Shown in pieces: positions 173-11,613 of a stretch of DNA of 30,634 nucleotides. This DNA is from a virus. Lineage: Duplodnaviria > Heunggongvirae > Uroviricota > Caudoviricetes. The stretch lies in the IMG/VR virus record IMGVR_UViG_2563366824_000009. One strand, written 5' to 3'. The notes under the pieces are model-generated. The model worked only from the letters and a program-made list of their open reading frames with translations. It was not told the origin of the DNA and ran no database searches. Numbering within the stretch: position 1 is the first letter of the stretch; every line of letters begins with the position of its first letter. Both the position numbers and the translations under genes were made by a program.

Positions 173-1222
173 TTATGCAACCTCTGCCGCCACATTGTCG
201 CCAACATACAGCGATAACGGATTGAGGGTTACAGCTTGTTCAAGGTGGTCAGGAGCAAAGTGCGCATACTTCATTGTTTCTCGAATATTGGCATGTCCGA
301 GAATTTTCTGCAGCACCAGTATATTCCCTCCGTTCATCATAAAATGCGCACCAAAAGTATGACGCAAAACGTGCGTCTTCTGCCCTTCCGTCAATTCAAT
401 ATTCGTTAGTTTGAGCATCTTTTTAAACTCCTGATAGCAGGGTTTAAACATTCTGCCTTGACGTACGGACAACTCGTCGTACAGCCATTTAGGAATAGGA
501 ACTGTGCGATTCTTCTTACCTTTGGTTTTGGTGAACGTTAGTTTATATGGAGAAAGTTGAGGTCGGGTCAATCTCTCCGCTTCCCCCCATCGAGCCCCGG
601 TTGCAAGGCACACCTTAACAATCATGGTGAGGTCTTCTTTGCCGTATTGCTCGCAGGCTCGAAACAGCTCCGGGAGCTGAGACAAAGTTAGCCAGGACAT
701 TTCTTTCTCAGCTTCTTTGAATACTCGGATCCCATCAAGTGGATTGGGTAGGCTCCACTCCCCTAACCGGCGGAGCTCATTAAACACTGCTTCTAGGTAT
801 TGTTGTTCGCGATTGACGGTTATAGGTTTGGCGATCCATTTCGAGGGGTCTTTATGATAACCATTGTCTATTTCACCACGTAATCGACGGTCACGATAAT
901 GAGCCCAGTCTTTCGCGGTAAGGCGAGATGCAATCGGGTCGCCAAGTCCATTACATACGATTTGAAGCTTTGCAAACCTCGACTTACTGGCGACTAACGC
1001 TTGACCGTGCAAATTGTGCCAAAGCTGAATAATCTCGCTTAAGCGTCGGCGGTCTTCTTTCTTGCCGAGCCACGGCTTATCTTCACTCTCGCTTTTGGTA
1101 AATGCTTCAAATGCCTCGGCCTCACCTTTGGTATTGAATTGCCGACGTATACGCCGCCCTTCTCGACCATTTGGATAGAGTTCACACAACCATTTTCCAC
1201 TTTTTTGTTTACTTACAGTCAT
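173..1222 (-). CDS. int: Tyrosine integrase (P2/186 type)
   Basis: 349 aa; C-terminal tyrosine-recombinase motifs in translation (HVLRHTFGAHF ... LGHANIRETMKYAHF); position at prophage edge next to repressor. Confidence 0.9.
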   Translation of the reverse strand: MTVSKQKSGKWLCELYPNGREGRRIRRQFNTKGEAEAFEAFTKSESEDKPWLGKKEDRRRLSEIIQLWHNLHGQALVASKSRFAKLQIVCNGLGDPIASRLTAKDWAHYRDRRLRGEIDNGYHKDPSKWIAKPITVNREQQYLEAVFNELRRLGEWSLPNPLDGIRVFKEAEKEMSWLTLSQLPELFRACEQYGKEDLTMIVKVCLATGARWGEAERLTRPQLSPYKLTFTKTKGKKNRTVPIPKWLYDELSVRQGRMFKPCYQEFKKMLKLTNIELTEGQKTHVLRHTFGAHFMMNGGNILVLQKILGHANIRETMKYAHFAPDHLEQAVTLNPLSLYVGDNVAAEVA

Positions 1223-1594: not shown

Positions 1595-2440
1595 TTAAAC
1601 ATGCTTTTCCAAAGTAAAAATAACCGCACCTGATGGTGTGATATCTGAAATATTACATTCAAACTCAGCAGACTTATTTGATAACCTGACCTTTCCGCCT
1701 GGCAACCTGATTACGTCAAAAACATCGAGTGCGCCATCAATACCAATAAGCCAGCGACCATTTCCTATCTTCGAGTTAGAACTATCAACAAGCCAAGATG
1801 TGCTCACACCATCAATAAACACTAAATCATCAGTATTTGATGGAACCATAGATATATCAGGAGTCCAGCGTCCGATATCTTTGAGTTCGCCCGCCTCGAG
1901 GCGGCACTTTCTAATCGTTAAAGCATTTGCCGGTTCACCATCATTACTGTTACGCATCTGGCCTTTTCCGGTTGATAACCATTCTAACGATACGCCAGTA
2001 TCAAGGGCGCAAGTGACAACCACGTCACCGGGGAAAAAATCGCGTCTAACCCAAGTGCTTATAGTGCCGGAAGATATGCCTAATAAATCTCCAAGCTCTT
2101 TTTGCAGAGTAAAACCATACGCATCGAGAATCCGACGCAGAACCGCCCTCCCTCCATTTGCCATGATTTCATCATAGAGTTGCTTACCTTTAAGCTTAGT
2201 TTTCACCACTTCAAATCTTGCATTTGCAAGCTCACCATTAATTAGCCATCGCAGGTCAGCTCCAGTATCAAGAGCACACTCAACGAAAACGTTGCTAGGG
2301 ATTACGTTTCTAGCAAGCCAGCTACTCACGTTGTTTGCATGTATGCCAAGCCTTTCGGCTAGTTCCTTTTGCTGCTTAAAGCCGTATGCAGAAAGGACAC
2401 GTTCCAATGCGGCAGACGCATTAACATCATTTTTAGACAT
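1595..2440 (-). CDS. Immunity repressor: tandem 186-CI-type HTH domains plus C-terminal S24 (LexA/CI-like) domain
   Basis: Start placed at ATG 2440 (MSKNDV...), not the ORF-track start at 2629; two internally repeated HTH modules (LERVLSAYGFKQQKELAERLGI... and LRRILDAYGFTLQKELGDLLGI...); C-terminus with DISMVP ... GKVRL resembling LexA Ser/Lys region. Confidence 0.7.
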   Translation of the reverse strand: MSKNDVNASAALERVLSAYGFKQQKELAERLGIHANNVSSWLARNVIPSNVFVECALDTGADLRWLINGELANARFEVVKTKLKGKQLYDEIMANGGRAVLRRILDAYGFTLQKELGDLLGISSGTISTWVRRDFFPGDVVVTCALDTGVSLEWLSTGKGQMRNSNDGEPANALTIRKCRLEAGELKDIGRWTPDISMVPSNTDDLVFIDGVSTSWLVDSSNSKIGNGRWLIGIDGALDVFDVIRLPGGKVRLSNKSAEFECNISDITPSGAVIFTLEKHV

Positions 2441-2925: not shown

Positions 2926-2957
2926 ATTTGATTATGCAAGTTAGAGGGAATTTAACC

Positions 2958-3467
2958 ATGTTTGATTTTCAGGTTTCCAAACATCCCCACTATGACGAAG
3001 CATGCCGCATTTTCGCACAGCGTCACAACATGGCGAAGCTGGCCGAGCGTGCAGGTATGAACGTTCAAACGTTACGTAACAAGCTCAACCCGGAACAGCC
3101 TCACCAGTTCACGCCACCTGAATTGTGGCTGCTGACTGACCTGACCGAAGACTCAACCCTCATTGATGGTTTTTTAGCGCAGATTCACTGCCTACCATGC
3201 GTGCCGGTTAATGAGTTGGCTAAAGACAAATTGCAGTCTTATGTCATGCGCGCAATGCGTGAACTCGGCGAACTGGCGAGCGGCGCGGTATCTGATGAGC
3301 GTCTGACCACTGCCCGTAAGCACAACATGATTGAAAGCGTTAACTCTGGTATTCGCATGTTGTCATTGTCGGCTCTGGCACTGCATGCACGTCTGCAGAC
3401 TAATCCTGCAATGTCGAGCGTGGTCGATACCATGAGCGGTATTGGCGCATCGTTTGGTCTGATTTGA
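2958..3467 (+). CDS. cII: Phage CII-family regulatory protein (186 CII-like)
   Basis: Start at ATG 2958 (MFDFQVSKHPHYDEACRIF...) with GAGGGAA SD; sequence recalled as close to 186 CII; position after Cox/Apl gene. Confidence 0.7.
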   Translation: MFDFQVSKHPHYDEACRIFAQRHNMAKLAERAGMNVQTLRNKLNPEQPHQFTPPELWLLTDLTEDSTLIDGFLAQIHCLPCVPVNELAKDKLQSYVMRAMRELGELASGAVSDERLTTARKHNMIESVNSGIRMLSLSALALHARLQTNPAMSSVVDTMSGIGASFGLI

Positions 3468-4494: not shown

Positions 4495-6717
4495 TTGGCT
4501 GTTCAATTCGCTTATCCGTGGAACGTCCCACGGTCGGCAATCTCCAGCCCATACCTTACTTATGAGCAACAGCATCGCCGCGACCGTATGTTCGCGGCTT
4601 TGCTGCATGCGAAAAAGGTGCTTTCTCTCCAGCCCGACTGCGTGCGGTTAGATGTTTATCGCACTGCTGCGGTGCTGGAGCAAAATCAGGGTAGTCAACG
4701 AGCCAATGCATTTTTAATCAGCTTCTGCAAAAAGGCATTGCCGCGTCTTGAACTGGTCGCAAAAAAATACGAATGCGCTGGTATCAACAGCAAGGTATCA
4801 ACCGCTGTTTTTGGAAGTCATTTTGATACTCAGCAAATGCAATATCTGTCGTCACGCATGGTTAATATGGTCGCCCGATATAACCGTCTCCCGGACATGT
4901 CGCGCGCTGATGTTGACCTGTTGGCCGCTGATATTGCTAATTTCATTCGTGGTGAACTTGCCAACATTAATGACCACGGATTCGGCGAGCTTAAAACGCT
5001 GTACACCTGGTATATTCGTGCTGGCTTTATTTCCCTCCAATTCAACGTTATCCCACCACATTGGGAGCGGGTTGAAAAAAAATATGTCGGTGCGGATGAA
5101 ATCGCACCGGCTATCGCCAAAATGTTTAACGATGGGTGGTGGCGCGGTCGTTTGCGCCGTGTTGCAGCTACGTGGCGCGAACACCTGCAAATTGCAGTCG
5201 GCAACGTCAGTAAGAAAAAAAACACTTACGCGAGTAAAAACTGCGTGACTGACTGGCGTGAACAAAAGCGCCGCACTCGTGAATTTCTCAAAGGTCTGGA
5301 TCTCGAAGACGAAGACGGCAACCGTATCAGCCTAATTGAAAAATATGATGGCTCAGTTGCTAACCCTGCGATTCGCCGCTGTGAGCTCATGACCCGCATT
5401 CGTGGGTTTGAAAACATCTGTAATGAGCTCGGTTATGTCGGTGAGTTTTACACTCTAACCGCGCCGTCAAAATATCACGCCACGACTAAAGCCGGTTACC
5501 GTAACAGCAAATGGAGCGGTGCCAGCCCGGCTGACACGCAAAACTATCTAACCGGTATCTGGGCGCGTATCCGTGCCAAACTACATCGGGAAGATGTCCG
5601 TATTTTCGGTATTCGTGTCGCCGAGCCCCATCACGACGGCACTCCACACTGGCACATGCTGATGTTCATGCTGCCGGAAGATGTTGAATATGTTCGCTCC
5701 ATCGTCCGTAAATACGCATGGAAAGAAGACCGCCACGAACTGAAAAGCGATAAATCCAAAAAAGCACGTTTCCACGCCGAGTCCATTGACCCGGAGAAAG
5801 GCAGCGCAACCGGCTATGTTGCTAAATACATTTCAAAAAATATCGACGGTTATGCTCTCGATGATGAAACCGATGATGAAAGCGGTGAGCTGCTGAAAGA
5901 GACAGCCCCCGCCGTTTCAGCATGGGCTGCGCGCTGGCACATCCGTCAGTTTCAGTTTATTGGTGGTGCGCCGGTGACGGTTTACCGTGAGTTGCGTCGC
6001 CTCGCTGATACCGAAACCGCGCACGGTCTGAGCGTTGAGTTTGCCGCCGTCCATGATGCCGCCGACGCTGGTGACTGGGCTGGTTATGTTAATGCTCAGG
6101 GTGGGCCGTTTGTCCGTCGCGATGATTTACAGGTGCGCACACTGTATGAACCGCGTACCGAGCTTAATCAGTACGGTGAGGAAACGGTATGTATTAAGGG
6201 GGTCTACGATTCCTCCATAGGTGCAGGAAGCCCGATTTTAACCCGGCTCACTCAGTGGAAGATTGTTCCGAAGCGTGCTGTTGATTTGGCCGTTGACCTT
6301 CAGGACGGCAAAGCCGTCCCTCGGAGTTCTGTCAATAACTGTACGGGAAGCGAAAGCGATCCACCGATACTGGATTTAACAAAACCACTGAGTCGGCGTG
6401 AAAGACGAGAATTAACCAACCGACTCAGGAAGCAAAAGCCAGCAGCACGGCGAAAATTCATCCACGGAACGGATGAGCAAAACGCAGCTATAGCTAAAAC
6501 TATCGATGAGATACATCTGACAACCGGCATTAATATCAGCCGGGGCGAAGCCCTGCACCTGATGGCCGGTGGTAAAAGTTGTTTTGATGGTAAATGGCTA
6601 CGCGGAACGGCCAAAGGAGAAATATTTTCCGCAGCACCATCGCATGAGGCTAAAGCTCGGAAAATCCTTAATCGTGTTGCGGCGATGGCTGAAGCATCAA
6701 AACCAATACATGAGTAA
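4495..6717 (+). CDS. A: Rolling-circle replication initiator endonuclease (P2 gpA family)
   Basis: 740 aa; TTG start preceded by GGGGGG SD; HUH-like PHWHMLMF and paired tyrosines in YVAKYISKNIDGY. Confidence 0.9.
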   Translation: MAVQFAYPWNVPRSAISSPYLTYEQQHRRDRMFAALLHAKKVLSLQPDCVRLDVYRTAAVLEQNQGSQRANAFLISFCKKALPRLELVAKKYECAGINSKVSTAVFGSHFDTQQMQYLSSRMVNMVARYNRLPDMSRADVDLLAADIANFIRGELANINDHGFGELKTLYTWYIRAGFISLQFNVIPPHWERVEKKYVGADEIAPAIAKMFNDGWWRGRLRRVAATWREHLQIAVGNVSKKKNTYASKNCVTDWREQKRRTREFLKGLDLEDEDGNRISLIEKYDGSVANPAIRRCELMTRIRGFENICNELGYVGEFYTLTAPSKYHATTKAGYRNSKWSGASPADTQNYLTGIWARIRAKLHREDVRIFGIRVAEPHHDGTPHWHMLMFMLPEDVEYVRSIVRKYAWKEDRHELKSDKSKKARFHAESIDPEKGSATGYVAKYISKNIDGYALDDETDDESGELLKETAPAVSAWAARWHIRQFQFIGGAPVTVYRELRRLADTETAHGLSVEFAAVHDAADAGDWAGYVNAQGGPFVRRDDLQVRTLYEPRTELNQYGEETVCIKGVYDSSIGAGSPILTRLTQWKIVPKRAVDLAVDLQDGKAVPRSSVNNCTGSESDPPILDLTKPLSRRERRELTNRLRKQKPAARRKFIHGTDEQNAAIAKTIDEIHLTTGINISRGEALHLMAGGKSCFDGKWLRGTAKGEIFSAAPSHEAKARKILNRVAAMAEASKPIHE

Positions 6718-6791
6718 TTCATATCCATATCATGCACATACAGCAATCGCTCTATTCGTTTTTTTTCTTCCCATCTTTTGCCAATACATGC

Positions 6792-6811
6792 TACTGTATA
6801 AATATACAGTA
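6792..6811. promoter_or_regulatory. LexA box (SOS operator) TACTGTATAAATATACAGTA
   Basis: Palindromic CTGT-N8-ACAG match; candidate -35 TTGCCA at 6778..6783 places the box over the -10 region; 20 nt upstream of ORF 6831. Confidence 0.7.
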
Positions 6812-6830
6812 ACCCTATGGGAGGGATTTC

Positions 6831-7013
6831 ATGGTTGGCGAACATTTCAGCCGAACGCAGCAAAAGTGGGCTTGTGTGCAATTTATTGCCGAGGTATCTC
6901 TGATTGCAAACTGCAAGCCATCAGACTTAAAGCTCGCGCTCACTCTCATTGCAGACCTAGCAAACAGCGAAAATAACGAAACCGAAGATGATAATTTTTA
7001 TAAGGCTGATTAG
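6831..7013 (+). CDS. N-terminal part of Tum-like SOS-induced gene (60 aa), ends at in-frame TAG
   Basis: GGGAGG SD 6 nt upstream of ATG; in the same reading frame as the DinI-like ORF, separated only by TAG plus one codon. Confidence 0.45.
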   Translation: MVGEHFSRTQQKWACVQFIAEVSLIANCKPSDLKLALTLIADLANSENNETEDDNFYKAD

Positions 7014-7016
7014 ATT

Positions 7017-7250
7017 ATGAGAATCAATATCACGTTGGATAAAGAGCAAAAAATTAGTCAGGCAACATTGGATGCACTTGAGGCTGAACTGTACCGCAAT
7101 CTTCAACCTATTTACCCAAAGACTGCTATCCGAATTCGCAAGGGCTCCGCTAATGGCGTTGAACTAAGCGGTTTGAAACTGGACGAAGATAAAAAACGAG
7201 TAATGGAAATCATGCAGCAGGTATGGGAGGACGATAGCTGGCTGCATTAA
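7017..7250 (+). CDS. DinI-family protein (DinI-like domain as in 186 Tum C-terminus)
   Basis: 77 aa; MRINITLDKEQ...DALEAELYRNLQ...RIRKGSANGVELSGLKLDEDKKRVMEIMQQVWEDDSW matches DinI family pattern and length. Confidence 0.85.
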   Translation: MRINITLDKEQKISQATLDALEAELYRNLQPIYPKTAIRIRKGSANGVELSGLKLDEDKKRVMEIMQQVWEDDSWLH

Positions 7251-7252
7251 CA

Positions 7253-7321
7253 AACGCCGCCGGTGCTGAAACTTGCTTTCAGTGCTGGCGGGGTTGAACA
7301 ACTCGCACCGCGAGGCGCTAG
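7253..7321 (+). repeat. Copy 1 of 69-nt structured 3' element (15-bp stem, loop CTTGC at 7257..7291)
   Basis: Begins 2 nt after the DinI-like stop; about 85 percent identical to copy 2; stem pairs fully only as plus-strand RNA (uses G-U pairs). Confidence 0.6.
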
Positions 7322-7445
7322 TTCTTCCTCTCAAAGTTTCTCGATGTTTTATTGGTTACACACCAGTGATGAATGGGACGTTACCTTAGCGGGTTTTATA
7401 GTGGCGCTGTGGCAGCACTAAATAAAATTCATTGAGGGCGATAAT

Positions 7446-7655
7446 ATGCATCGACTACCGGGCGAAATTCCGCAGCACAAAACTAAAAGCATCAAACTGA
7501 TGGCCATCGTTCATCGTCTGCAGCAGATAATGGTCAATGAGAATTTGACACCCGCCGAGCTGGTCGGGTGTGCCGAAATAGTCAGGGATAATTACGGCAA
7601 GCTGGATAGCATCAGCAAGCCGACACATTACTCACCGCCACCACGTCGACCATAG
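7446..7655 (+). CDS. Hypothetical small protein (variable region)
   Basis: 69 aa; GAGGG SD 5-6 nt upstream; followed directly by repeat copy 2. Confidence 0.45.
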   Translation: MHRLPGEIPQHKTKSIKLMAIVHRLQQIMVNENLTPAELVGCAEIVRDNYGKLDSISKPTHYSPPPRRP

Positions 7656-7657
7656 AT

Positions 7658-7726
7658 AACGCCGCCGGAGTTGAAACTCGCTTTCAGGTCTGGCGGGGTT
7701 GAACAACGAGCTACGCGAGGCGTTAG
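7658..7726 (+). repeat. Copy 2 of 69-nt structured 3' element (stem-loop 7662..7696)
   Basis: Begins 2 nt after the stop of ORF 7446..7655; compensatory substitutions relative to copy 1 preserve pairing. Confidence 0.6.
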
Positions 7727-7788
7727 CCGGTCATAGCGTCGCAAATACTTCAACCGTCTGCTGGTTAAATAATTCGAGGTTTTTGGAC

Positions 7789-7983
7789 ATGCAAAATCCC
7801 CTTTCATCGAAAAATGACCCGTTTGCCGATTGGGCAAAGAATCTGACTTTAATGGCTTTAAATAACGACCTGAGCTCTCGCGAGGTGGAAAGCTACACCG
7901 CAAAAATGGTCGAGCAGGCCGGTAAAGATGAGCTATCAGTCGTTATCAAACACCTGTTAAATCACATCAGAATGCGCAAATAA
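7789..7983 (+). CDS. Hypothetical small protein (variable region); possibly distant paralogue of 7446..7655
   Basis: Start moved to ATG 7789 (MQNPLSS...) with GAGG about 9 nt upstream, because the ORF-track start overlaps repeat copy 2. Confidence 0.4.
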   Translation: MQNPLSSKNDPFADWAKNLTLMALNNDLSSREVESYTAKMVEQAGKDELSVVIKHLLNHIRMRK

Positions 7984-7999
7984 GAGGAACTATATAAAT

Positions 8000-8101
8000 A
8001 TGTTATCTCTCGTTTATGAAAATCCGTGGACGACGATTTTTCTGATGATTGTTGCCAGCATGTGCCTCAACAGTGTTATTGGCGCATTGCGCGGTCATTA
8101 A
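8000..8101 (+). CDS. 33-aa hydrophobic peptide MLSLVYENPWTTIFLMIVASMCLNSVIGALRGH (small membrane peptide)
   Basis: Not in ORF track (too short); AAGAGGA at 7982..7988 before ATG 8000; single predicted TM helix; followed by terminator. Confidence 0.35.
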   Translation: MLSLVYENPWTTIFLMIVASMCLNSVIGALRGH

Positions 8102-8122
8102 TCGCGACAAAACCAGACTAAA

Positions 8123-8150
8123 GCCGGCACCCTGAATGCCGGTTTTTTTA
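8123..8150 (+). terminator. Rho-independent terminator (CCGGCA / TGCCGG stem, 7-nt loop, T7 tract)
   Basis: Stem 8124..8129 with 8137..8142 followed by TTTTTTT at 8143..8149. Confidence 0.55.
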
Positions 8151-8309
8151 TGCCATTTTTCCGCGAATTTCCCGTTTTTTAGTCGTGCATGCATCAGGTG
8201 CATGGTTTTGCATGCGTCAGTCTTGCCCGTTCTGTTCGTGCGCCGCCAGAGCTAGCGCGGATCCAGAGTTGTCATGCAACTGCATTAAAACCGCCCCATA
8301 AAGCGGGCA

Positions 8310-8328
8310 GGCGTGGCGGGGAAAGCAT
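8310..8328. other. cos cohesive-end site GGCGTGGCGGGGAAAGCAT (186/P2 type)
   Basis: 19-mer matches the P2/186 cohesive-end sequence as recalled from memory (0-2 mismatches); position between A-side genes and portal Q as in P2 prophage maps. Confidence 0.55.
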
Positions 8329-8532
8329 TGCGCGCCAGCGGTGGTGCGTATTATTAAAAATTATCGTCTGAGAACGTCGTGACGGCGCTGTAGTGGCCGG
8401 GTGTGATCGTGGGCGCGTGGTGCGTCTGTGGCGTGGTGCTAAAGGATGGGATCAGTTGCACAATTTTACGGTTTCGCTTTGGCTAATATCCATATTGAGA
8501 CTTTATGTTCCCCACAACAGTTGGAGGCTTTA

Positions 8533-8757
8533 ATGGATAACTATCATATTACAAAAGATGGCGATAAGTGGAAGTTGCAAAAAGAGGGCAATGACCGCCC
8601 TAGCAAGACCGCGACCACAAAGGCCGAGCTGATTAAAACAACATCTGAGTTTATGTCGAACAAAACAGGCTCGGTCAAAATTCACAAGGAAGATGGGAAA
8701 ATTCAGGAAGAACGCACTTATCAGAGAAAAGATGATCCTAAAAAGTCTAAAGGCTAA
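8533..8757 (+). CDS. DUF2188-like small protein
   Basis: 74 aa from ATG 8533 with GGAGG SD; pattern YHITKDGDKWKL...GSVKIHKEDGKIQEERTYQRKDDP resembles the DUF2188 family. Confidence 0.5.
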   Translation: MDNYHITKDGDKWKLQKEGNDRPSKTATTKAELIKTTSEFMSNKTGSVKIHKEDGKIQEERTYQRKDDPKKSKG

Positions 8758-8760
8758 CAT

Positions 8761-8785
8761 AGCAAAAGCCGCCAAAATGGCGGCT
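8761..8785 (-). terminator. Terminator hairpin downstream of portal gene (8-bp stem AGCCGCCA/TGGCGGCT, loop AAA)
   Basis: Perfect inverted repeat 8767..8785; T-rich on minus strand after the stem; also lies 3' of the plus-strand DUF2188 gene. Confidence 0.5.
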
Positions 8786-8795
8786 TAAAAGGTGA

Positions 8796-9842
8796 TTATT
8801 CCGGGTTGTCGAGTGTGTACTCTTTGAACCTGATGACCTCCATACCGAGCCAGTCGTTTACCTCCCTGAACCTATCCTGCAGGGGTGACAGCTCATTACG
8901 CACAAATACCTTTGCCACCTTCTCAACGTCACCGAGTGAACCGATATTCTCGGGCTTGCCGCCCATGAGCTGGAACGGTACGCGGTGCGCGTCCATCAGA
9001 TCGGCGGCACTGGCCTTCTTGATGTTGAAAAAGTCATCCTTTGTGGCGACCTCGCTCAGTGGCACGATTTTGATGCCGTCCGGTTTTCCGCCGGGAGCGT
9101 AGAAAAACAGGTTCTTAAAGTTGCCGAGCCCTTTTGAGTTGCGCATCGCCTCGCGCAGCGATTCGACGTCGGTCGCGCTCTGCGCCGGGTCAGTCACATA
9201 CATGATGTAACCCGCGTGCGCGCCGTTCTGATAATACTTGCGGCGGAACAGCGTCGCGGATTCATTCAGCCAGGCGGAATTTAGCGCGCTGAGATATTCG
9301 GGCAGGCCGTAAATCTCCTGATTAATGTCGGGCTCCAGCAGGTGAAACACGGTATCAGGCGCGAACTCGTGCGGCTGGGTGAAGTTTTCCACAAACCAGA
9401 AAATCGAATCGTCGACTCCGCGTCGGGTGTATTTGGCTGGCGAGGCCAGCAGTTTGATTAACTGGCCGGTGACACTGTGGCGCTGCTCAAGAAAGGCGTT
9501 ACCGAACACCAGATAATCGAGCGCAAAGCGGCTGAAATCCTGACGGGATAACAACGGGTGCGGAATGTAGGTGCTCGCGAGCACGTTACGCTTAACATAA
9601 ATTGGCGAGCTGTGATGCACGGCAGAGCGCAGGCTCTTTGCCAGCCCTGAGAAGCTGACCGGCGGCTCGTACCATTTGCCGTTACTGATGCACTCGACGT
9701 AATCCAGAATGTCGCGCTTATCGAGTACCGGCACCGGCTCGCCGAAGGTGAACGCTGTCGTTTTTGGCGGTGCGCTGGCGGTCAGTTGTTGTGGTTTGCT
9801 GGCCTTTTGTGCGTTGGCTTTACGGGATTTTTGTTTACCCAT
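8796..9842 (-). CDS. Q: Portal protein (P2 gpQ family)
   Basis: 348 aa (P2 Q about 344 aa); adjacent to and co-oriented with terminase P, divergent from O. Confidence 0.9.
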   Translation of the reverse strand: MGKQKSRKANAQKASKPQQLTASAPPKTTAFTFGEPVPVLDKRDILDYVECISNGKWYEPPVSFSGLAKSLRSAVHHSSPIYVKRNVLASTYIPHPLLSRQDFSRFALDYLVFGNAFLEQRHSVTGQLIKLLASPAKYTRRGVDDSIFWFVENFTQPHEFAPDTVFHLLEPDINQEIYGLPEYLSALNSAWLNESATLFRRKYYQNGAHAGYIMYVTDPAQSATDVESLREAMRNSKGLGNFKNLFFYAPGGKPDGIKIVPLSEVATKDDFFNIKKASAADLMDAHRVPFQLMGGKPENIGSLGDVEKVAKVFVRNELSPLQDRFREVNDWLGMEVIRFKEYTLDNPE

Positions 9843-9843
9843 T

Positions 9844-11613
9844 TTAGTTGAACTCCAGAATAGATTTAGGCTGCATGCCGCTACCGGCAGAAAGCGGTTC
9901 GTTTAACAGGGCGTGCATGGTCGCCCATGCGATATCGGCGTGGCTGGCTTCCTCGGTGCGGCTGGCCTCATAGGTGGCGCTGCGCCCGCTGCTGGTCATG
10001 GTTTTGCGGATGGACATAAACGACTGCGTGACGTCGGTTGCTCCGGCGTCGTACTCCAGACAGCCACGGCGAATGGTGTCTTTCGCCTTGAGTACCATTG
10101 CGGTTTTCATTTCAGGTGTGTAACGGATGCCGCGTGCCGCCGGGTAAAATGAGCGCACCAGCTGGAACACGCCGAGACCGAGGCCGGTTGCGTCAATGCC
10201 GATGTATTCGACGTTGTATTTCTCGGTCAGCTTGCGGATGCCCTCTGCCTGTGCTGCAAAATCCATGCCCTTCCACTGGTGGTGCTCCAGCATGCGGAAC
10301 TTGCCACCAGAGACCACCGGCGGCGCGAGCACGACGCACCCGGCACTGTCGCCGGTGTGTGACGGGTCGTAGCCAATCCAGACAGGACGAGAGCCGAACG
10401 GATGGTCGGCGAACGGGGCAAAGTCCTCCCATTCCTCCATCACATCGACCATGCAGCGCTGCAGCTCCTCGAACGGGAATACCGACGCTTTATCGTCGAC
10501 AAACTCGCACATAAACAGGTTCTTAAAGTCCTCATCACTGTTTTCGCGTTTGAGCTGGTCGAGGTCGAACAGGGTGCAGCCACCCGCAAGGGCGTCCTCA
10601 ATGGTGACAATCTGCCGCCACTGGCCATCGTCGCAGAGCTGGCCACCGGCGAGCGCGCTGTGACTGATGTCGATTTCGATGCGGTCGGCAATCCGGCTGC
10701 GCCCCTTGTTGAACAGCTCGCCAGACCAGAAGGGGTAAGCGCCGTGCGCCAGCGTGGAAGGTGTCGAAAAATAGGTCGAGCGCAGGTGCTTTTGCGAGGC
10801 CATGCCCGAGGCGACTTTGCGCAGTTTCTGAAAATTCGGGATCCAGAATATTTCATCGACATACAGATCGCCGTTATGGCTCTGCGCGGTGTTGGAATTG
10901 GTACCGAGAAAAATCAGTTTTGCGCCGTTGTTACCGATGACAATCGGGTCGCCAGTCAGGTCAACGTCGACCAGTCGCGCAAACTGGATGATGTATTCGC
11001 GGAACACGTAAGCCTGCGTTTTACTGGCTGATAAAAATATCTGGTTATGGCCGGTTTTGAGTGCGCGCAGCAGTGCCTCGCGGGAGAAATAGAATGTCGC
11101 GCCAATCTGGCGGGATTTGAGAATGTCACGAATACGGTGCTCCAGTCCTGCGCGGTACCACTGCAACTGGTACTCGAAAGACTGGTCGAAAAATAATTCC
11201 TCTAGTTTATCGATAGCCTCGTCGCTGAAAAAATTCTTTTTCGGCTTTTTGCGCTCCCCTTTGTTGCGGTTGGCGACGTTGGGGTTAAGGTCGGCTTCGT
11301 TGCCGGTCTGGCTGTAGCGGTTGACTCGCGCCAACCGTTCAATCTGCCGTCCGAGCAGGTCAATCTCTTTGAAATCACCCCCTGTCTTTTGCGGCTTGGC
11401 GATGAGCTGAATCAGCCTAGCCTCAAGGCTGCTTTCAACGCGGGAAATCGGCGCGATGCCGTCCCAGCCGTCGCGCTGCTTCCAGCTCTGCACGGTCGGG
11501 CGCTTGACCTGCAGCATTTCGGCAATCTGTGGCACGGAAAAACCCTGCCAGTAAAGCAGCGATGCCTGCCGTCGCGGGTCATGCAACAAGGTTGTATCGG
11601 TGGAAATGGTCAT
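9844..11613 (-). CDS. P: Terminase large (ATPase) subunit (P2 gpP family)
   Basis: 589 aa; position and length as P2 P. Confidence 0.9.
   Translation of the reverse strand: MTISTDTTLLHDPRRQASLLYWQGFSVPQIAEMLQVKRPTVQSWKQRDGWDGIAPISRVESSLEARLIQLIAKPQKTGGDFKEIDLLGRQIERLARVNRYSQTGNEADLNPNVANRNKGERKKPKKNFFSDEAIDKLEELFFDQSFEYQLQWYRAGLEHRIRDILKSRQIGATFYFSREALLRALKTGHNQIFLSASKTQAYVFREYIIQFARLVDVDLTGDPIVIGNNGAKLIFLGTNSNTAQSHNGDLYVDEIFWIPNFQKLRKVASGMASQKHLRSTYFSTPSTLAHGAYPFWSGELFNKGRSRIADRIEIDISHSALAGGQLCDDGQWRQIVTIEDALAGGCTLFDLDQLKRENSDEDFKNLFMCEFVDDKASVFPFEELQRCMVDVMEEWEDFAPFADHPFGSRPVWIGYDPSHTGDSAGCVVLAPPVVSGGKFRMLEHHQWKGMDFAAQAEGIRKLTEKYNVEYIGIDATGLGLGVFQLVRSFYPAARGIRYTPEMKTAMVLKAKDTIRRGCLEYDAGATDVTQSFMSIRKTMTSSGRSATYEASRTEEASHADIAWATMHALLNEPLSAGSGMQPKSILEFN

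Follow-up and report, generated by a model that had tools for sequence, protein, structure and literature searches.

The tum locus of phage 186 and its relatives

The closest described counterparts of the locus reported here are the tum loci of phages 186 and PSP3, which belong to the class of LexA-controlled antirepressors set out as a concept by Lemire et al. 2011 (PMC3121763). The Tum protein of 186 binds its repressor and prevents operator binding, and in the literature view it is Tum, and not cleavage stimulated by RecA, that inactivates repressors of the 186 type (PMC3121763). The 186 record (U32222) annotates a LexA site and a promoter, p95, with a −35 hexamer of TTCACA and a −10 hexamer of TACTGT separated by an 18-nt spacer, the −10 hexamer constituting the first six bases of the LexA box. 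The same record describes Tum as a 146-aa protein that 'inhibits CI DNA binding', together with a set of nested in-frame products including Tum95.5 (GTG start, 76 aa), which 'modulates SOS induction'; the internal GTG is preceded by the Shine-Dalgarno sequence AAGGAGGG.

The record of phage PSP3 (Eganvirus PsP3; GenBank AY135486) annotates the same two open reading frames as those described below, naming them tumA ('similar to 5' end 186 tum; UV induction of prophage') and tumB ('similar to dinI and 3' end of 186 tum'). Lemire et al. (PMC3121763) note that tum is split by a stop codon in both PSP3 and Fels-2, and place antirepressor activity in the upstream PSP3 gene on the basis of a personal communication. 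Operons of the Fels-2/SopEPhi and Gifsy types have similar ingredients (a LexA box, a small antirepressor-type reading frame and a distinct DinI-like gene, the product of which is nearly identical to TumB in its C-terminal half), although in the Gifsy prophages the order is reversed and dinI comes first (PMC3121763). We take from this literature both the control of 186 Tum by LexA and its mode of action as an antirepressor, and likewise the antirepressor role given to PSP3 tumA. Annotation of the split tum locus in PSP3-like phages goes back to 2002, and the locus has also been treated in print (PMC3121763). As a discovery it therefore offers little that is new, and the remaining interest is modest, lying in the pairing of TumA with a tandem helix-turn-helix (HTH) CI repressor, the possibility of cross-induction, and a DinI cistron that is both optional and mobile.

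Genomic setting of the locus

The 30,634-nt stretch of DNA that was analysed (the window) is a P2/186-like prophage by gene content and Pfam domains. A leftwards-transcribed integrase gene (173..1222, complementary strand) and a DUF2511 gene are followed by the cI repressor gene (1595..2440, complementary strand), a 186-type CII gene (2928..3467), a DksA/TraR zinc-finger gene and gene A, for replication (4495..6717). Next come the SOS box and the pair of tum reading frames, and then a number of small reading frames and the portal gene (8796..9842, complementary strand), which places the tumA/tumB locus between gene A and the portal/cos region. No counterpart of orf97, the gene downstream in phage 186, is evident here.

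A 751-bp region of the locus has 94.5% DNA identity to Salmonella phage PSP3 and 93–96% identity to phages SEN1, SI22, SW9, Midge and RCIP0057. A 503-bp core is 99.6–100% identical in the best-matching complete E. coli chromosomes listed; it has a match in 81 of 5426 genomes, with at least 80% of the query covered in 37 of them, and in these 37 complete E. coli genomes the locus is annotated as two genes ('hypothetical protein' and 'DinI family protein'). We therefore consider the window to be an E. coli prophage of the PSP3 type. PSP3 carries its locus at the same site after gene A, with an identical SOS box, Shine-Dalgarno sequence and TAG-ATT-ATG junction, but differs in its immunity allele and in a short segment of the promoter region (see below). 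A preliminary description, made from the DNA sequence alone, had recognised here the tum locus of a 186-like prophage, and this identification is borne out by the position after gene A, the LexA box in front and the DinI-like C-terminal part. The region is thus very probably the SOS-induction operon of a PSP3-like prophage (Eganvirus, phage 186 family), comprising a tumA antirepressor gene and a DinI-like tumB gene.

SOS box and promoter

The LexA (SOS) box, TACTGTATAAATATACAGTA (6792..6811, no strand assigned), matches the 20-mer palindromic LexA consensus TACTGTATATATATACAGTA at 19 of 20 positions, with one mismatch, and coincides in position with the annotated LexA site of 186. It is the sole instance of CTGT-N8-ACAG in the window, and no SOS-box match arose in any of 100 shuffled sequences, even with up to three mismatches allowed; the near-consensus box reported earlier at these coordinates is therefore well founded. 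It is invariant across the window and six phages (seven in all), and a LexA box is situated ~37–43 nt upstream of the tumA start in all 29 loci obtained by scanning one genome per species. Boxes of this kind also precede the genes of phage ENT90 and of Yersinia phages whose products resemble the N-terminal part of 186 Tum (Tum-N).

A generic sigma-70 promoter scan called none at the SOS box, and the hexamers were therefore assigned by homology to the 186 p95 annotation. The probable −35 hexamer is TTCCCA (6768..6773, rightwards), identified solely through its correspondence to p95 and invariant in the seven phages; the probable −10 hexamer is TACTGT (6792..6797), the first six nucleotides of the LexA box. 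Together they match the sigma-70 consensus at only 7 of 12 positions. The preliminary description had proposed TTGCCA (6778..6783, rightwards) as the −35 hexamer, and while this sequence is present, and occurs in 186 too, it is not annotated as a −35 hexamer there and is replaced by TTATCA in three of the seven phages (PSP3, SEN1 and SI22). The p95 homology thus shifts the likely −35 hexamer to the left, but the accompanying claim that the LexA box overlaps the core promoter holds for the predicted hexamers whichever −35 applies.

The tumA gene

The first gene of the operon, tumA (6831..7013, rightwards), encodes a 60-aa candidate antirepressor and ends in a TAG codon (7011..7013). Its strong Shine-Dalgarno sequence, remarked on from the start, is a GGAGG (6820..6824, same strand) located 6 nt before the ATG at 6831 and is invariant in the seven phages. 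The product is 98% identical to PSP3 TumA, from which it differs at one residue, and matches PHROG 1993 (E 1e-31). Because this PHROG is labelled 'unknown function' and tumA is a 'hypothetical protein' in RefSeq E. coli genomes, there is some gain for annotation in recognising the gene.

Searched with TumA, a collection of 5.8 billion proteins gave 208 clusters at 90% identity. Among the 120 clusters listed, the protein is 60 aa long in 81 and 61 aa in 21, the longer entries are N-terminal over-calls running through the SOS box, and there is no TumA–DinI fusion. Hosts include Escherichia, Salmonella, Klebsiella, Citrobacter, Cronobacter, Enterobacter, Yokenella, Kluyvera, Pluralibacter, Kosakonia, Atlantibacter and Buttiauxella, among others. 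The stop codon varies across the 29 species loci, being TAG, TAA or TGA, and in an alignment of the window and six phages all but four columns of tumA are invariant. TumA is thus, as judged from these comparisons, a stand-alone family of ~60-aa proteins found across the Enterobacteriaceae, always with a LexA box upstream.

Structural prediction is of little help in assigning a function. The AlphaFold (AF2) model of TumA is a helical hairpin (helices at residues 8–25 and 30–51) with a disordered acidic tail (pLDDT 72), and Foldseek comparison of this generic hairpin with the PDB gives nothing below E 4.8. Pfam searches with TumA have no match at E≤10, and a sequence search of the PDB with the TumA profile gives chance matches alone (E ~1 or higher).

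Relationship of TumA to the N-terminal part of 186 Tum

The preliminary description supposed that the 60-aa reading frame would align with the N-terminal part of 186 Tum. BLASTP gives no alignment between the two proteins, but the supposition fares better with profiles. A 61-sequence TumA profile aligns residues 16–47 with residues 14–45 of the single 186 Tum sequence (34% identity, E 1.3e-4, probability 54%), and an hhalign comparison with a Tum-N profile composed of four N-terminal parts (186, ENT90, Yen06.16-2 and Yen324) gives a colinear match of 88.5% (E 2.7e-6), although this covers 31 columns only and both alignments are shallow (Neff ~2). A 64-aa reading frame in Yersinia phage vB_YenM_31.17 bridges the two families, scoring 97.9% with the TumA profile and 64.7% with that of Tum-N. 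Genes of both the TumA and Tum-N types all sit after gene A behind a LexA box, and their products have a common signature, (I/V)xxIAxxxxxxxC...(D/E)xxxALxxIA(D/E)(L/I)A. While the direct sequence support is weak, the bridging Yersinia sequence and the shared synteny argue for a probable homology of TumA with the N-terminal part of 186 Tum.

The same pattern, in the form xIxxIAxxxxxxxC...ALxxI(A/S)(D/E)L, is found in the small reading frames of the Fels-2/SopEPhi- and Gifsy-type operons, and a 62-aa reading frame of SopEPhi and ST15-OXA48phi14.1 carries it. The SopEPhi frame is nonetheless a third sequence type, which tblastn with either TumA or 186 Tum-N does not detect.

tumB and the tumA–tumB junction

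The second gene, tumB (7017..7250, rightwards), encodes a 77-aa protein of the DinI family. It matches Pfam DinI (PF06183) over profile positions 2–63 of 63 with 84.3 bits (gathering cutoff 24.2; E 7e-24), is similar to E. coli DinI (1GHH; E 2.6e-9), and has 47% identity to residues 71–145 of 186 Tum (E 5e-28). The alignment with E. coli DinI is full-length and includes the region of the C-terminal acidic W-E-D motif; TumB differs in being phage-borne and encoded downstream of an antirepressor, and any effect on RecA is a prediction.

The two genes lie in a single frame and meet at TAG-ATT-ATG (7011..7019, rightwards), comprising the tumA stop, one codon and the tumB start. The coordinates given earlier for two in-frame reading frames separated by TAG plus one codon, with about 139 codons altogether, all check out (60+1+1+77 = 139). 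The junction is invariant in the seven phages. Phage 613R3 has the same junction and a TumA that is 100% identical, together with a diverged, 186-like tumB allele that begins ~35 nt into tumB, and the junction is therefore a mosaic boundary too.

It had been noticed that the DinI-like reading frame lacks a good Shine-Dalgarno sequence of its own, and the only candidate is indeed an AAGG alone, 11 nt upstream of the start, which is AAAG in SI22. With no usable ribosome binding site and an ATG only 3 nt beyond the tumA stop, the most economical explanation is that tumB is probably translated by termination-reinitiation coupled to tumA. A predicted hairpin at the junction, which could occlude the start of tumB and might in that way enforce coupling, has only marginal stability (−11.4 kcal/mol, z −2.0).

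The arrangement differs in other lineages. A DinI-like gene lies directly 3' of tumA in 8 of the 29 species loci (in one it is apparently frameshifted), at a distance of 2, 3, 13 or 17 nt, and each of the three relative frames is represented. In 20 loci there is none within the ~0.5–1.5 kb of downstream flank, and one more locus ends 73 nt after tumA. Lineages with larger gaps have a Shine-Dalgarno sequence belonging to the DinI gene itself, GAGGG in a Pantoea locus and AAGGG in SopEPhi, where the gap is 10–11 nt and the frame is different from that of tumA. Whether related DinI-like reading frames stand alone with their own ribosome binding site, a point raised in the preliminary description, therefore depends on the lineage; it is so for those with larger gaps, but not for the 3-nt-gap type, which has the AAGG at −11 only.

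These differences bear on a reading in which the TAG is leaky or suppressible, giving rise, alongside the two separate products, to a minor 139-aa TumA–TumB read-through protein that is equivalent to 186 Tum and contributes to induction. Every member of the PSP3 subgroup keeps the frame across its 3-nt gap, as does an Atlantibacter locus (TAA-GCG-ATG), and 186 makes both a fused protein and a free DinI-like part. However, at gaps of 2, 13 and 17 nt the DinI-like gene is in frame +1 or +2 (loci L033, L037 and L038), the SopEPhi-type phages are likewise out of frame, 20 of the 29 species loci have no DinI-like gene in the downstream flank covered, the 120 TumA homologues listed include no fused protein, and no read-through signal is evident. 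We consider such a protein very unlikely, and programmed read-through as a conserved feature is rejected because both frame and spacing differ between lineages. Reinitiation at a separate tumB remains the preferred reading.

The CI repressor

The presumed target of TumA is the CI immunity repressor (281 aa), in which Pfam identifies two Phage_CI_repr domains and one Phage_CI_C domain, the 186-type HTH and C-terminal domains having E values of 1.5e-47 and 4.6e-19. Residues 100–274 align with full-length 186 CI (2FJR; E 4e-21), its closest solved relative, and residues 1–99 are an internal duplicate of the HTH region (43% identity, E 7e-23), so that the present CI has two HTH domains where 186 CI has one. 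PSP3 CI (286 aa) has the same tandem-HTH architecture and is 74% identical, with the first HTH the most diverged. The tandem-HTH family is large, the best 120 of 1005 matches all being 267–289 aa in length, and members accompany TumA in Kosakonia, Buttiauxella and Pluralibacter prophages.

The preliminary description also credited the repressor with an S24-like domain, and hence the prophage with potentially two SOS inputs, one being LexA-controlled TumA and the other an S24-type C-terminal domain by which CI would cleave itself when stimulated by RecA. What stands of this is a resemblance in fold. Foldseek comparison of the CI model (AlphaFold, pLDDT 71) lists LexA structures directly after the 186 CI entries (8TRG_I, E 4.8e-4; 3K2Z, E 7e-4; and the LexA C-terminal domain 1JHE, E 9e-3 over 117 columns), the match lying in the CI C-terminal domain, and a profile alignment of CI with E. 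coli LexA (the query being identical to PDB 7B5G_A), while weak (E 0.0097), is colinear with the fold match. The window CI moreover has an Ala-Gly pair (183–184) and a Ser at the position corresponding to LexA S119. The catalytic dyad of S24 peptidases is not found, however. The position aligned with LexA K156 (CI Asp242) is Asp in all 45 homologues compared, the position aligned with S119 (CI 213) is variable (G in 17, N in 13, S in 7, and H and others in the remainder), and Ala-Gly is replaced by Ser-Gly in 35 of the 45. The C-terminal domain has no Peptidase_S24 match in Pfam even at E≤10, nor is this domain among the precomputed domains of 120 CI homologues (the best of 1005). Taken with the reported inactivation of its closest solved relative, 186 CI, by Tum, these substitutions make a second input through RecA-dependent cleavage very unlikely indeed, and CI self-cleavage is rejected on the catalytic residues. 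The modelled C-terminal domain is best described as a catalytically dead relative of the LexA fold, as judged by the invariant Asp at the Lys position, the variable Ser position and the Ser-Gly in place of Ala-Gly.

Split and fused tum genes

The preliminary description had taken the locus for an interrupted tum, either pseudogenised or encoding two coupled products. The weakest of the readings, in which a formerly fused 186-type tum was recently inactivated by an amber mutation, the TAG, leaving a pseudogene and a prophage no longer SOS-inducible, can point to two in-frame reading frames one codon apart and to junction DNA homologous to the fused 186 gene (the AAGG is common to both and aligns with the 186 internal Shine-Dalgarno sequence AAGGAGGG, and the internal GTG of 186 has its counterpart in the tumB ATG), but it is scarcely credible with an identical junction in seven phages isolated independently, their hosts being Salmonella, E. 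coli and Klebsiella, and in the 37 complete E. coli genomes, a TumA of ~60 aa in essentially all 120 listed clusters, stop codons that vary among species, a PSP3 tumA entered as a 'UV induction' locus, and dN/dS ratios (Nei-Gojobori) of 0.06–0.12 for tumA against distant loci and 0–0.03 for tumB, the latter with up to 18 synonymous and no non-synonymous differences. The pseudogene reading is thus rejected on conservation and dN/dS, and the alternative of two products is retained. Because dN/dS is low for both, tumA and tumB are each kept by selection as separate genes; on this evidence from sequence comparison they are two conserved genes, with the TAG as a conserved gene boundary and no broken tum.

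The locus of 186 is similar in having a LexA box that overlaps the promoter at the same place and a DinI-like part that is also expressed alone, from the internal GTG homologous to the tumB ATG. It differs in encoding a single fused polypeptide with nested products, whereas here two cistrons have the TAG at 7011..7013 between the halves. The split and fused arrangements differ by 3 nt plus the stop codon, so a simple event at the junction connects the two. In both sequence types most antirepressor genes stand alone, with no DinI partner (20 of 29 TumA loci, and the genes of ENT90 and the Yersinia phages), and the fusion in 186 is therefore more likely to be derived, a direction also suggested by Lemire et al. 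(PMC3121763).

The construction of the module emerges from comparison of the loci. Its constant part is a LexA box with a small helical antirepressor, and DinI is an optional passenger, which may be missing, form its own cistron in whichever frame, or be joined to the antirepressor, as it is in 186.

TumA is 98–100% identical among phages whose CI proteins are only ~72–74% identical, with the divergence concentrated in the first HTH. We raise as a tentative proposal, which we do not favour, that TumA goes with the tandem-HTH CI family as a whole and is not specific to any one immunity type. If so, a damage signal from one PSP3-like prophage could cross-induce heteroimmune ones, in crosstalk of the Gifsy style. 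On this reading the in-frame TAG might also allow a trace of a 186-like fused protein.

Proposed mechanism of induction

In an undamaged cell, LexA bound at 6792..6811 would cover the −10 hexamer and the start region and keep the operon off. Upon DNA damage, activated RecA would stimulate LexA self-cleavage and the promoter would fire. TumA is then predicted to act as an antirepressor, binding the 186-type CI and blocking its operator binding, such that the lytic promoter is derepressed without CI cleavage. Ribosomes ending tumA would probably reinitiate at tumB, and we infer this coupling, as we do the promoter hexamers, from the arrangement of the locus. The free DinI-like TumB is the counterpart of Tum95.5, which 186 makes by internal initiation. 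Its most likely target is the RecA filament, through which it would tune the strength or duration of both the SOS signal and induction, a role inferred for it in the same way. For the present element, LexA binding, the TumA–CI interaction and tumB translation are all predictions from the DNA.

A hairpin downstream of tumB

An Rfam search of 6500..8800 gives only a chance Thr-leader match (E 0.98). Directly after tumB there is a strong predicted RNA hairpin (7253..7295, rightwards) with a minimum free energy of −39.4 kcal/mol (z −4.4), and none of 200 shuffled sequences is as stable. It has no U tract and is therefore not a canonical intrinsic terminator, but by analogy it may act as an attenuator or partial terminator, functionally like t95a of phage 186.

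The tumA–tumB junction

The antirepressor candidate gene tumA and the adjoining DinI-family gene tumB (window coordinates 6831–7250) were compared with the corresponding regions of related sequences (L001, L004–L007 and L013–L016). Among phages of the PSP3 subgroup, which share a TAG-ATT-ATG junction between the two genes, tumA and its promoter are nearly invariant, even at synonymous sites (0–3 synonymous changes), whereas tumB has dS values of 0.16–0.5. Moreover, a 186-like tumB allele is joined to the same tumA in phage 613R3 and in Escherichia sp. E1V33. Because of this disparity and the mixed allele combinations, the tumA–tumB junction is, on sequence comparison, a recombination (mosaic) boundary.

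The DinI-like gene 3′ of tumA in an Atlantibacter MAG (L025 coordinates 1687–1916) is split into two frames by tblastn and so appears to be frameshifted; this could reflect either decay of tumB or misassembly, the MAG being of low coverage.

Directly 3′ of the tumB stop codon is a very stable RNA hairpin (coordinates 7253–7295, plus strand) with a 15 bp stem (−39.4 kcal/mol; z −4.4) and without a U tract. It may attenuate the SOS transcript or mark a site where that transcript is processed, and it lies upstream of two small ORFs of unknown function (7446–7655, PHROG 11386; 7699–7983, PHROG 2454).

The CI repressor and its neighbor

The leftwards-transcribed repressor gene cI (coordinates 1595–2440) encodes a protein in which two tandem 186-type HTH domains, instead of the single HTH of 186 CI, precede a 186-type C-terminal domain. 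The two copies are an internal duplicate with 43% identity, and tandem-HTH CI proteins (276–289 aa) form a large family in the Enterobacteriaceae. Window and PSP3 CI diverge in the first HTH, with the second HTH and C-terminal domain conserved. TumA-type antirepressors occur alongside tandem-HTH CI in all cases examined, and 186, the one Tum-N-type phage in the comparison, has single-HTH CI.

Between the integrase gene and cI is a leftwards-transcribed gene (1247–1585) whose DUF2511 product has an N-terminus resembling a signal peptide and is the counterpart of PSP3 gp28; the gene is probably a lysogenic-conversion (moron) gene.

TumA-bearing elements in other genera

In P2-like loci of Kosakonia (L042) and Pluralibacter (L044) the genes after 7186, directly 3′ of tumA, encode tail X, holin, lysozyme and baseplate/tail proteins, and none for portal, terminase or capsid intervenes. 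From this gene order they look like head-less derivatives, possibly tailocin-like, that retain the LexA-box/TumA/CI switch. In Buttiauxella noackiae (L043) tumA and the portal gene are separated by an inserted gene for a 918-aa HD-CE domain protein (7460–10216), which takes the cargo (moron) position occupied in the window by small ORFs and a DUF2188 gene (8446–8757).
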